From NCBI GenBank assembly GCA_951406725.2, contig OX597823.1, positions 31,062,001 to 31,126,000 on the forward strand: a stretch of DNA of 64,000 bases. The letters are read 5' to 3'. Each line of letters starts with the position of its first letter. The first letter of the stretch is position 1. A program made the position numbers and the translations under genes. The notes under the pieces were generated by a model. That model was not told the origin of the DNA, did no database searches, and saw nothing but the letters and a program-made list of their open reading frames with translations. Positions 15,100 through 50,376 of the stretch are shown piece by piece. This stretch comes from Octopus vulgaris (lineage: Eukaryota).

Positions 15100-15224
15100 C
15101 CCTTCATCAGTTGTCCCCTGTTTTATCTACTCCGCGTTTCGAAGGTAGGGACAAGGTGTGAATTTGTTAAAACAGTCCTTCCCGCAAAGCAAATTAAATA
15201 AAATTTGGGATTTTTTACGGAGGG
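15100..15224 (-). ncRNA. Non-circularly permuted hammerhead-like motif, family C (probably inactive copy)
   Basis: Minus strand: P0 CCCU; hairpin CCGUAAA..UUUGCGG; II GAAGG; III-distal CUGUUUUA; decayed III/UH (UUCACA-CC); I UUGUCCC; UA; II' CCUUC; GAAA; III' CGCGGA; III-distal' UAAAACAG; I' GGGACAA; CUGAUGA; P0' AGGG. Host element is about 14965-15410. Confidence 0.7.
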
Positions 15225-15529
15225 TTAAAGTGGTAGCAAAAACAGGACAGTAAGAACAAAACAGTAAAAACAAACTGTGAAGGCTGTTAAGCCATAACGA
15301 GGTGAAGTGGTTTGAGAGGAGACAGGCAAAAGCATGTCTTGTCTTTAGGAAGGAAGTGGAAGAAAGTAAGATAGATAGCCGTTGGTCACGTGTGAGTAAC
15401 GAGAAATACATATACATATGTTTAAACTATTTGTATATGTGTGCATGTACATATATACATGCACATCTATATGTATACACATCAGCACACACATATGTAC
15501 GTATGTGCATACACCCATCTTTTCTTTCA

Positions 15530-16420
15530 TCTTTTCCTTGTTTCAGTCATTGGACTACAGCCATACAGGGGTACCACCTTGAAGAATTTTTAGTAGAATG
15601 AGTCGACCCCAGCACTTACTTTTTTTCCTTTAAGTTTGGCACTTATTTCTTTTTTTAAGTTTGGCGCTTATTTTATCGGTCTTTTGCCGAACCGCTACGT
15701 TACGGGGACGTAAACACATCAACACTTGTTGTTAAGCAGTGGGGGGGGGGGGACAAACACCGACACACACAGAGACACACAAACACACACGCACATGCAC
15801 ACATGTACACACTCGCATATATATATATATATATATCTTTCTCTCTTTCTCTTTTACTTGTTTCAGTCATTTGACTGTGGCCATGCTGGAGCACCGCCTT
15901 TAGTCAAGCAAATCGACCCCGGGACTTATTCTTTGTAAGCCCAGTACTTATTCTATCGGTCTCTTTTGCCGAACCGCTAAGTGACGGGGACGTAAACACA
16001 CCAGCATCGGTTGTCAAGCAATGCTAGGAGGACAAACACAGACACACAAATATATACACACACACTTATATATATATATATACATATATACGACAGGCTT
16101 CTTTCAGTTTCCGTCTACCAAATCCACTCACAAGGCATTGGTCGGCCCGGGGCTATAGCAGAAGACACTTGCCCAAGATGCCACGCAGTGGGACTGAACC
16201 CGGAACCATGTGGTTGGTTAGCAAGCTACTTACCACACAGCCACTCCTGCGCCTATATATATATATATATATATACAACGGGTTGTTTTCAGTTTCCTTC
16301 TACCAAATCCACTCACAAGGCTTTGGTCGGCCCAAGATTAGACTAGAAGCCATTTACCCAAAGTACCCGGAACCATGCGGTTGGGAAGCAAGCTTCTCAC
16401 TACACAGTCACCCCTGCGCT
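15530..16420 (-). mobile_element. Cluster of SINE family 1 copies (full copy 15846-16254 plus two partial copies)
   Basis: Repeated head and tail segments of family 1. Confidence 0.88.
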
Positions 16421-46149: not shown

Positions 46150-47400
46150 TTCAAGTTACAGACGATTTAAAATCTGAAAACGCAAATTGGCACGACATAA
46201 CCAACAGCAGCAGCAAAAGCGACCACAATGACGATGACGACAACGACAATGTACACACGCTTTTTGTCAAAGGAGTAACTAAATTGAAAGCAATTTCCGC
46301 TCAATCTACGTTGCCAGTGGCAAAGAGATTTTGAAAGGTGTCCACGGAGCCGAGAAAAAATAGTTTGCGAAAGTTTTGTAACCAAGAAGGGCGTTTATTT
46401 ACCCTTATTTACCAAAACCTTTCATTCAAATGAGTATTTCAGTTTGAGAAACAGTAGACAAATTACCGACCTCAGTATCGTCAAAAACCGGAGTTAAATA
46501 GACGTCAACAAACGTCTATTTAAGCTAACAAAAGAATATTTAGAAGTAGTCCTGGTTAATATGTCAGAAAATATCTCCTCTATCAACCAGCGGAAAAGTT
46601 AAAGAACTGGATGTGAAGTTTTTCAAAGCTGAAGATACGGTGAAGAAGAAAAACAAGCTGTTGTATCATTCTGCTTTCCATACATTTGTATCACAATACT
46701 CGGGTCGGGTATTCACTACAATGTTCTCCCTAGGCTTGACGTCTCTTTTGTGGTACGTTATGAGCAGGTTATAAGTGCGGAGGCAGTCAAGAATATATAG
46801 ACAAGTGGAGAATCAATGGACAAAGATGTTCTAATGATACCGGAAGACCACTGACCCAACACAAAGCTGTGTCCCGTCAAGGGAGAATAGGAGAAGGTCA
46901 TTAGACTGGTCATGCAAAATAGAAACGTCTAGGTGCTACACTTGTGGCAGTAAGCACCATATGAGGGCTATTTCCTAAGTAAAAATCTAGAAACAGAAAA
47001 ATGAGCAGCAGAGGAAGCATCAACAACGTCAACTTACACAGATTTCTGCTTCAACAACATAACGAATTATACTACAGGTTATATCGTCGACGATAACCCG
47101 AAAACGTGCCTCGTCTTCAATCTCAAAATCCCGCTGATAATGAAGCAGACAACCAGGAAAGTAAGGAGTTCAATACAGTAGTACAACCTCATTTTCTTGT
47201 GACAAAGAGAAGAGGAACAAGGATTAGATTATAAAACTACCAGAAACATTTAAAAGGCCACAAACTCCTCAATGCATCCAAAAGGAAAATAACCGAAGGG
47301 GAAGACAAGGAAATGCCCAATGTTATTGTCTATATAGTCGTATTCTAGATTGGATGAATATGTTATTTAGCTTTTCTAGTGTACATTGTCTTACTTCGTA
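46150..47400 (+). mobile_element. L1/Tx1-type ORF1 relic
   Basis: CYTCGSKHH zinc-knuckle-like motif at about 46934-46960 in A-rich decayed coding-like sequence. Confidence 0.4.
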
Positions 47401-50234
47401 TGATCAGATCCATTGCAGTATTCCAAGTTTACACCAAAAGCGTATTATTATTTTTTTCTAAACCTAGGTAAAATAATTGCAGAAAAAAAAACAGGATCTT
47501 TAGTTTTGAAGGCATATTCGTAAATGTAACATAAATTATAGTCTCCTCAGATTTATATTCCAACCCTGGACATGCTTCAAGCAATTTTCAGCCTGTGCAA
47601 GGGGTTGCAATTTTAGTTCTAGTTTTATGGTTAGACATTGGTAGATCATGTGTATTCTTTTACTTTTTGTGTGTGATTTTGTCGTTTTCACCCTATCAAT
47701 CTATATAAACTGTGCACTTCATGTAGCCTTAAGGGTCTTAACCCTTATTTCTGGCAATACAGGTGCTATTCAACATAGTCACTCACAATTAAAGATAGTT
47801 AAATTTTCCGTTTTGACTTCATATTGCGCCTAGCTGCTTATATCAATTTTTAGTATATACATGAACATTTCGCTAAATCCGCCATAAATTTAAGTAGTAA
47901 AAATATATATACAGACAGATGTCTGTCTATCCATCCATCTATCTATCTATCTATCTATCTATCTATCTATCTATCTATCTATCTATCTATCTATCTATCT
48001 ATCTATCTATCTATCTATCTATCTATCTATCTATTTATTTGGCACTGTGGACGAGTGTGAAACTAACAGAGGAAACCGGTCCAGTGATCCTAGCTTTGCT
48101 AAGGGGCGGTTATCACCCCTGTCAGTGTATATAAATTGTGCACATTATGTAGCCTTAAGGATTCTGATTCTCATTTCTTGCAGTATAGGTGCTACTCAGC
48201 ACGCCCAGTCACAATTAGTGCGATTATACATACATACATACATACATACATACATACATACATACATACATACATGCATGCATGCATGCGCGCATACATA
48301 CATATTCATATATATATATCGATATGAATATATATATATATATATATATATATATATATATATATATGTATGTTTGTGTATTATATATATATAATCGCAC
48401 TATATATATATAGAACAAAAGCGCAATAGAGGACAATAAAACATTCGGACAGATAGACGATATATAGGCGGACAGGAGAAACAACAATTAGAAGTACAGG
48501 CAAAAAAAGACGGGTAATTCGTATTTACGTCCCCGTAATTTAGCGGTTCGGCAAAAGAGTAATAATAGAATAAGTAGTAGGCTTACAAAGAATAAGTCCT
48601 GGGGTCGATCTGCATAGCCGCAGTCAAATGACTGAAACAAGTAAAAGAATAAAAGAATATATATACATATATATATATAGAAAGGTAGATAGATAGATAG
48701 ACACAGACAGACAGACATAGATAAATAGATAGATAGATAGATAGACAGACAGACTGACAGACAGATAAATAGCTAGCTGGCTAGCTCGTTAGATAGATAG
48801 ATAGATAGATAGTTAGATAAATAGATAGACTGACAGACAGATAAACAGGTAGATCGATAGATAGACAGATAGAGAGAGAGAGAGATACATACATACATAC
48901 ACACATACATACATACATACATACATAAACAGATGTTTTATATATGGATATAAACTATGCATATACACGTACACACTCCAACACACATATCTATGTACAC
49001 ACACGCACATACATATATGTGTGTGTGTTTATATGTATATGTATATGTATGTGTGTATATATATATATATATACATATATAGATATGCACACACATATAT
49101 ATACGTACAAGAGTGAGCGAGAAAGACAGACAGAGAAAACATGTTAAGAAGATCAGTAACAATAACGATAAACATTAACCTCAGCATCAGCATGAGCATC
49201 AGCAGCATCATCAAAACAATACCAAGAACAACAACAAGAAATAACATCATCAATTTTAAGAACTGTAGCAGAGTGACGTAGGCACACACACACACACACA
49301 CACACACACACACACGCACACACACACACGCACACACACACACACAAAGGCAGCCATGTATGTGAGCCACATAGACAGAGGCACACAAATACACACACAC
49401 TCACATATACATATATGTACGCCAACTTGCTGCAGTGACAGTGAACGGTGTGTAGACGATTAAAGCAGAATGCACCGAGTCAACTCTGGGAAACCGAACG
49501 GAATCGAATGAGATGGCGGAGGCGGGGGGGGATGAAAGGAGCGGGGGGCGACGGGGAGAGGAAGGAATATAAGCGACGGTGGGAGTGAGGGAGTGGAATA
49601 TATAGCGGAGGTGGTTATGGTAGTGGTGGTGGTGAGTGTGTGGGGGAGATTAAATGTGGGGCAGAACACATTTATTTCTGTTTCACAGTCATTGTATTAG
49701 AGACACACTGACGCATTGATTGATAGATAGACACATAGCTAGCTAAGATAGATAGGTAGATAGATAGATAGATAGATAGATAGATAGATAGATAGATAGA
49801 TAGATAGATAGATAGATAGATAGACTGGTAGATAGATAGATAGATAGATAGACAGATAGATAGATAATTAGATAGATAGATAGATAAAAGAAGAAAGAAA
49901 GAAAGAAAGAAAGAAAAGAGAGAGAGATAGGCAGATAGATAGATAGACAGAGATGGATAGATACATACATTACATATATACATTACATACATACATACAT
50001 AGGTAGGCTGAGTGAAAGACTGATGGTCAAAAAGATGCAGAGGTAGGTATCTCTCTCTCTCTCTCTCTCTCTCTCTCTGTATATATATATATATATATAT
50101 ATATATATATATATATGTATGTATGTATGTATGTATGTACAAATGGGACAAGAACGCAAAATATCCTGACAAGTGATACAAAAATGGGACAGCAAAACAA
50201 CTAGATAGACGATACAAAGAAAATAAGGACAGAT

Positions 50235-50376
50235 CATTCGGAGTTTTCTTTCCTCGGTCGAGTTCCAGATTATCTTTACAATTTCGGCTGGTTATATTCG
50301 AGATTGCTCCAACTGGCCAGCGTCAAGGAAAAACTAAGTTAAGGGCATTAGATTCCTTGGAAGAAAGCAGCGGATG
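50235..50376 (-). ncRNA. Non-circularly permuted hammerhead-like motif, family A copy 3 (core U4C)
   Basis: Same layout as copies 1 and 2. Stem I is UCGA/UCGA here versus UCAA/UUGA in copy 2, a compensatory change. Core reads CCGAGGA; GAAA and AUC are retained. Host element is about 50140-50415. Confidence 0.7.

Follow-up and report, generated by a model that had tools for sequence, protein, structure and literature searches.

A hammerhead fold with a split core in the 3' tails of octopus retroelements

We analyzed repeats in a 64,000-nucleotide stretch of the Octopus vulgaris genome (assembly GCA_951406725.2, contig OX597823.1, positions 31,062,001 to 31,126,000 of the forward strand; hereafter the window), where five loci had been predicted to carry a hammerhead ribozyme matching none of the circular types I, II or III. 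Judging from sequence, the repeats are probably the 3' tails of retroelements that carry a split-core, self-cleaving ribozyme of block order S-G-C, which would make unit-length RNA that is likely circularized and repeatedly reverse transcribed. Compared across families, the fold is real and conserved; it is wired like the described type SGC hammerhead but fails that type's unbroken block C. Self-cleavage after position H17 and the RNA circles we infer.

As far as its available text goes, the work of Eckert et al. (2023; PMC10085705) defines six block orders and assumes that block C (I'-CUGAnGA-II) is uninterruptible. Cleavage is demonstrated there for SGC and CSG ribozymes, and the non-circular types come from metatranscriptomes rather than from genomes of known organisms, one GCS candidate excepted.

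Results

Consensus fold. At a first look, genome searches gave 3409 candidates for family A, 2063 for B and 2840 for C, which are not copy numbers; 40 of each were scored. Families E and D and subfamily A3 came from flanks and a random sample, and family F from a published tail of a Naiad element. Each family consensus was built from 15–30 top-scoring loci.

Read 5' to 3', the strands at the five window loci are P0, a hairpin, the stem II 5' strand, strand a, stem III with UH, and stem I; after a short linker follow the stem II 3' strand, GAAA, the stem III partner, strand b, the stem I partner, CUGANGA and the P0 partner. This is the order S-G-C, as had been claimed for all five loci, and the cyclic order C-G-S of the circular types is absent. 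The original prediction placed P0 at or just after A9, the hairpin against the upstream stem II 5' strand and a UA linker in B and C, and all of these are present. It also offered consensus sequences without the core nucleotides or pairings as grounds for rejection. All seven consensuses (A, A3, E, C, D, F and B) keep CUGANGA, GAAA and UH in the order S-G-C and form six helices: stems I (6–8 pairs), II (5–6) and III (5–6), P0, the hairpin, and a duplex of strands a and b (−5.1 to −11.2 kcal/mol). H17 is C, U or A throughout, never G. The hammerhead sits at a fixed position in every family, 100–200 nt from the 3' end.

The core is split at the A9–G10.1 step, which P0 and the hairpin occupy in all seven families. 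In each consensus the best stem II 5' strand lies upstream (5–6 pairs); directly after A9, stem II would have 0 pairs in A, A3, E and B and 2 in F. P0, the hairpin and stem II adjoin directly in A3, C, D and F; a single base intervenes in B, and in A and E the junction runs across a two-base mismatch.

The a/b helix had been described as a distal extension of stem III. The helix exists, but its two strands are the one that follows the stem II 5' strand and the one that precedes stem I'. By its pairing it is in the position of the helix that Eckert et al. describe between stems I and II. A kink-turn signature (three-base bulge, tandem G-A) links stem III to a/b in A, A3, E and F (4/7); in B, C and D, a search for a kink-turn whose canonical stem is stem III found none.

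By alignment, A, A3 and E form one homologous group that aligns with no other family, and C and D form another; D matches C strongly and F weakly (score 29, shuffle maximum 23). The claim that A, B and C are unrelated in sequence holds, with local alignment scores of 13–14 against shuffle means of 12.9–15.6. Diverged C- and A-group subfamilies with different stem I, II and III sequences were also seen (L184:764-928, L356:2659-2823 and L237:310-474).

Among near-full distinct copies, the core descriptor is passed by 44/49 of A, 11/26 of A3, 7/7 of E, 7/36 of C, 22/26 of D, 20/35 of F and 22/25 of B, mixed rates which imply that old families hold many decayed copies. A strict S-G-C descriptor gave two matches in the window, against two in total over 100 dinucleotide shuffles, and one match in 80 unselected 10-kb genome stretches (800 kb), against none in 10 shuffles. 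Scaled up from that single match, a density of one intact copy in 800 kb would put the genome total, very roughly, at a few thousand. An Rfam scan of the window has no hammerhead among the 150 matches listed of 541, only microRNA and small nucleolar RNA models on microsatellites. A scan of four family F loci likewise matched models of these kinds and no hammerhead.

Covariation. Absence of covariation had likewise been named in advance as evidence against the fold. In an alignment of 11 A-group copies, 13 of 45 pairs are doubly changed, compared with 5.1 ± 1.7 in 500 shuffles, none of which reaches 13, though related sequences may exceed shuffles without any structure. Slid controls gave 2–4 such pairs. 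The changed pairs include three in stem I, three of six in stem II, two in stem III and three of seven in a/b; the copies were picked from 21 descriptor-passing representatives and are biased for stems I and III. Compensated differences also separate C, D and F: stem II is GAAGG/CCUUC versus GACAC/GUGUC, and P0 is CCCU/AGGG versus CCA/UGG.

Comparison with known hammerheads. The type SGC ribozymes (HRIMA-1 and variants), as far as described in PMC10085705, share with the present fold the S-G-C order, a short linker between stems I and II, two core pseudoknots, and a helix that bridges stems I and II on their other sides. They differ in that block C is unbroken, whereas here the stem II 5' strand lies at the 5' end and P0 and the hairpin are inserted at A9–G10.1. 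They are also almost exclusively environmental, whereas the present form has many genomic copies in retroelements. Type CSG, represented in the same source by two metagenome sequences, has the same cyclic order, and the form here opens that cycle inside block C. As to whether this version had been described before, its order is that of type SGC, and the split between A9 and stem II lies outside the six types in the available text.

The minimal type I hammerheads of Penelope-like elements and retrozymes not derived from long-terminal-repeat (LTR) elements likewise lie in the element tail and have been proposed to yield unit-length circles (PMC4209133; bioRxiv 10.64898/2026.07.22.740005, both in the parts available). 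They have type I order and a weak stem III and depend on dimers; here stem III has 5–6 pairs and the order is non-circular. An RNA-circle model was proposed for Penelope-like elements by Cervera and de la Pena (2014; PMC4209133, in the part available).

Our literature search, mostly at the level of titles and with the supplements of Eckert et al. outside it, found no description of a split block C or of permuted hammerheads in Naiads. A split block C was not found in the available portions of Perreault 2011, Forgia 2023, PMC11014351 and bioRxiv 10.64898/2026.07.22.740005; an accessible passage of PMC13725137 mentions hammerhead variants 'containing additional helices'.

Naiad elements. Craig et al. 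(2021; PMC8557442), in the text available, report Naiads to lack canonical hammerheads and tag eight of them 'HHR_half_core', with the second half of the core 35–50 nt away on either side, a matter that the available text leaves unresolved. By eye, family F matches the tail of Naiad_Ovul/Naiad_Obim, and its tail pattern has 244 matches in this genome (control 0). The 5' truncation, partial tandems and (TA)n targets that the same text gives for Naiads match family F. No ORF (open reading frame) of the Naiad kind, with GIY-YIG and reverse transcriptase (RT), was found within 1.5 kb upstream of 15 family F loci.

The 3' ends of 18 of the 54 Naiad consensuses were read by eye, each named from the following header and the table order. 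The split form occurs in Naiad_Obim, Naiad_Ovul and the coral Naiad_Amil and, degenerate, in the squid Naiad_Esco. An unbroken C-S-G form occurs in the nematode and spider elements Naiad_Parc, Naiad-3_Nbra, Naiad_Hpol and Naiad_Smim, where a helix corresponding to a/b pairs the strand that precedes stem I' with the one that follows stem II. Since this helix is common to both, the split form can be seen as the C-S-G cycle opened inside block C. One form or the other accounts for six of the seven half-core cases among those read; Naiad-3_Dst is unexplained. The split-core hammerhead is likely to be the ribozyme that Naiads were reported to lack.

A HERO-like element. Family B is the 3' untranslated region (UTR) of an element with a single 1175-aa ORF and a unit length of 3737 nt. 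The ORF encodes an RT by Pfam RVT_1 (E 5.7e-19), and its C-terminus has CCHC and PD..E..K-like restriction-like-endonuclease (RLE) motifs, read by eye. We take the element to be HERO-like, a provisional name given on sequence likeness: RLE non-LTR retrotransposons of the HERO clade also have a single ORF, an RT, and C-terminal CCHC and endonuclease-like motifs. The family appears young, and of the 40 genome matches listed for the window copy, 27 are 100% identical (the window copy counted). The fold is therefore not confined to Penelope-like elements. The original prediction of a selected retroelement fold of cephalopods stands as to a conserved retroelement hammerhead and falls as to cephalopods, since a coral Naiad and metagenomic HERO relatives carry it too. 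In the literature searched, no description was found of a 3' UTR hammerhead or of Penelope-style partial tandems in HERO elements.

Two family B loci were read at full length; upstream of each lies a stretch of the element's own 3' end, 1678 nt in one and 370 nt in the other. Among 30 loci with a 5' head (two of which look like one duplication, and two of which were already in an earlier set), 29 heads follow the element's own tail at one exact junction with no added bases. The 29 upstream pieces start anywhere from 95 nt after the predicted cut to more than 1385 nt before it. As 22 of them reach past the cut, a linear cut monomer cannot be their template. From the predicted cut to the genomic 3' end is 117 nt, so a linear cut monomer would give short copies only, and longer ones need a ligated circle or uncut tandem RNA. 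None of the listed contigs from four sequencing runs spans the tail-head junction with 31 bases on either side, although contigs cannot show ends, and this result speaks neither for nor against expression.

Nine loci from metagenome contigs are HERO relatives. Six pass the core descriptor, and in all six stem II has 0 pairs after A9. Two of the others have the layout with a broken GAAA, and the contig of the third stops 127 nt past the match. L415 has a broken stem II. In L420 every helix differs from family B in sequence, with pairing and the zero-spacer junction kept.

Separately, at L091 a full HERO-like copy lies between two parts of another RT-encoding ORF (3-2882 and 8748-9998), apparently inserted into a second non-LTR element. 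The HERO tails (window 32246-32356 (−), L414 and L419-L422) also share a hairpin complementary to stem I' and CUGANGA.

Non-coding families. Families A, A3, E, C and D are non-coding, with units of about 650–850 nt in A and C. Their 5' ends vary by truncation, their 3' ends are fixed and run into a (TA)n or (CA)n microsatellite, and partial tandem or inverted copies occur; four of six family A heads follow a clear tail. All five families thus have the hallmarks of non-autonomous Penelope-like elements: 5' truncation, a fixed 3' end, tandem or inverted copies, and microsatellite targets. An autonomous partner sharing their 3' end was not found; one GIY-YIG family was checked. This Penelope-like family, beside L092, was rejected as a parent of A or C: 0/30 tails pass the descriptor, and what the tail carries instead is a minimal type I-like motif.

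A young GIY-YIG Penelope-like family (L239-L268) has a tail about 700 nt past the ORF, with a minimal type I-like motif in which UUGAAAA replaces CUGANGA and stem III is palindromic. A splice-donor-like GTAAG(T/G) motif lies shortly after the tail-head junction, before a pyrimidine-rich tract, at L003, L012, L014 and L018 (A) and at L074 and L088 (C), an arrangement reminiscent of the 5' intron in Penelope-like elements.

Loci in the window. Three of the five copies keep CUGANGA, GAAA and UH, and the claimed coordinates and H17 positions agree with ours; the two others have decayed, so that the predicted core is only partly borne out copy by copy. The consensuses restore both defects, which makes the claim valid for the families and not for each window copy.

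The family B hammerhead (32246..32356, minus strand) has an intact core, with CUGAUGA at 32269-32263, GAAA at 32289-32286 and the predicted cut at 32304/32303. It lies in a 5'-truncated tail of the HERO-like element (32184..32405, minus strand) that (TA)n tracts flank on both sides. Family A copy A1 (23224..23367, minus strand) also has an intact core, with one mismatch in stem I, CUGAAGA at 23246-23240 and a predicted cut at 23291/23290; its 5'-truncated tail (23151..23465, minus strand), from a non-coding unit of about 850 nt, ends in a (CA)n/(TA)n tract. The core of A-group copy A2 (36569..36704, plus strand) is intact as well (CUGAGGA at 36682-36688, predicted cut 36637/36638), with a stem II of only 4 bp and the kink-turn G-A lost. 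The family A3 copy (50235..50376, minus strand) is likely inactive, its core reading CCGAGGA (U4 changed); P0 pairs immediately at A9. Likely inactive too is the family C copy (15100..15224, minus strand; CUGAUGA at 15110-15104), in which U16.1 and stem III have decayed; it belongs to a 5'-truncated tail of a non-coding unit (14955..15309, minus strand) whose 3' end is approximate.

Discussion

In the mechanism that we propose, stem II would stack on the core G-A pairs, and P0 would stack on the hairpin as a four-way junction, replacing the A9–G10.1 bond. Helix a/b would align and hold stems I and II, via the kink-turn in some families. A cut after H17 would free unit-length RNA from a tandem transcript, and ligation of its ends would give a circle. 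Priming by the element's RT may then occur some 117 nt past the cut (family B), with the enzyme running round the circle more than once.

Copies that start at the predicted cut are suggestive of cleavage at most. Among truncated copies from matches chosen on the downstream part, such starts number 2/30 in A, 1–2/30 in B and 1/55 in F. In 68 unselected copies, 5' ends did not accumulate significantly at the cut; starts are denser downstream than upstream, with no peak.

Several points weigh against a self-cleaving split-core ribozyme copied from circles. The activity of the fold is a prediction from sequence. The 68 unselected copies yield one new start at the cut, microsatellite bases obscure the exact position of most such starts, and none of the 29 upstream HERO pieces starts there. 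The available text of PMC10085705 allows at most 1–2 inserted bases beside CUGAnGA, and no natural precedent for an open backbone at A9–G10.1 was found in the literature searched. In the last 500–600 nt of 10 of the 18 Naiad 3' ends, no such fold was seen by eye. Families C and D could form stem II after A9 with 3–4 weak pairs, half of them G-U. The covariation counts are inflated by the choice of copies on stems I and III and by their kinship. Minimum free energy z-scores, from nested folding with pseudoknots outside the model, are only −2.6 to +0.6; stems I and II are pseudoknots. Nested folding recovers the whole fold in no family, and in six of seven HERO copies it buries CUGANGA in a competing helix. 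The buried core may reflect an inactive state or inefficient cleavage; in the HERO tails, the diverged L420 included, it is a possible off switch.

That competing fold, a strong one in the HERO tails, favours a different account, to which we give a low though appreciable probability: the ribozyme is slow or can be switched and serves to trim or regulate the transcript, and it is uncut read-through of tandem masters or template jumping, not circles, that gives rise to the partial tandems. The upstream duplications freely cross the cut site, and the known SGC and CSG ribozymes are slow, at 0.004–0.19 per min (PMC10085705, available text). Template jumping, however, would hardly yield one junction without added bases in 29 of 30 heads, and read-through to 1678 nt needs masters of at least two units.

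It is improbable that the structure is a non-cleaving derivative of a hammerhead serving as an RT binding or priming signal. Its fixed distance from the 3' end in each family would suit such a role, and cleavage is a prediction; yet the catalytic bases are all kept while the helices turn over, in elements with unrelated proteins, and G is never found at H17. Slimmer still are the chances of an ordinary SGC hammerhead, or one acting in trans or as a dimer, in which the strand after A9 or a second molecule would supply stem II and P0 and the hairpin would be incidental. The weak pairs in C and D would fit it, as would the minimal hammerheads of the Penelope type, which act as dimers (PMC4209133, in the part available). 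The lack of any pairs after A9 in A, A3, E and B, with two in F, speaks against it, as do the covariation of P0 and the hairpin and their in-register position right beside stem II.

A self-cleaving split-core ribozyme feeding RNA circles remains our preferred reading. We would put at even chances its widest form: that Naiads from coral to octopus, and HERO elements, have as their working ribozyme a seventh hammerhead wiring, in which a stacked four-way junction closes the broken catalytic strand; that non-circular hammerheads are a large overlooked class in animals; and that a LINE-type element is copied from ribozyme-made circles.

Cleavage by the fold would be an exception to the published rule that CUGANGA is inseparable from stem II; it would also mean that non-circular hammerheads, so far nearly environmental only, enter animal genomes at high copy number. 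Standard hammerhead searches miss the split wiring, so counts of animal ribozymes would be underestimates. Cleavage would also explain why hammerheads had seemed to be missing from Naiads, and Naiads could then no longer be cited as a sign that Penelope-like elements carry hammerheads as passengers they can do without. A young HERO-like family whose ORFs are intact would then offer a test of the circle model of retrotransposition.

Other hammerhead-like sequences were seen in passing. At L094:3082-4541 (plus strand) and in opposite-strand copies, tandem units of about 355 nt each carry a canonical type I hammerhead (seven copies) and look like a non-LTR retrozyme. The random sample gave type I-like hammerhead candidates with long stem II loops at L148, L119 and L106. 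In the window, an inverted duplication at 59610-59658 places the same CUGAAGA stretch on both strands.

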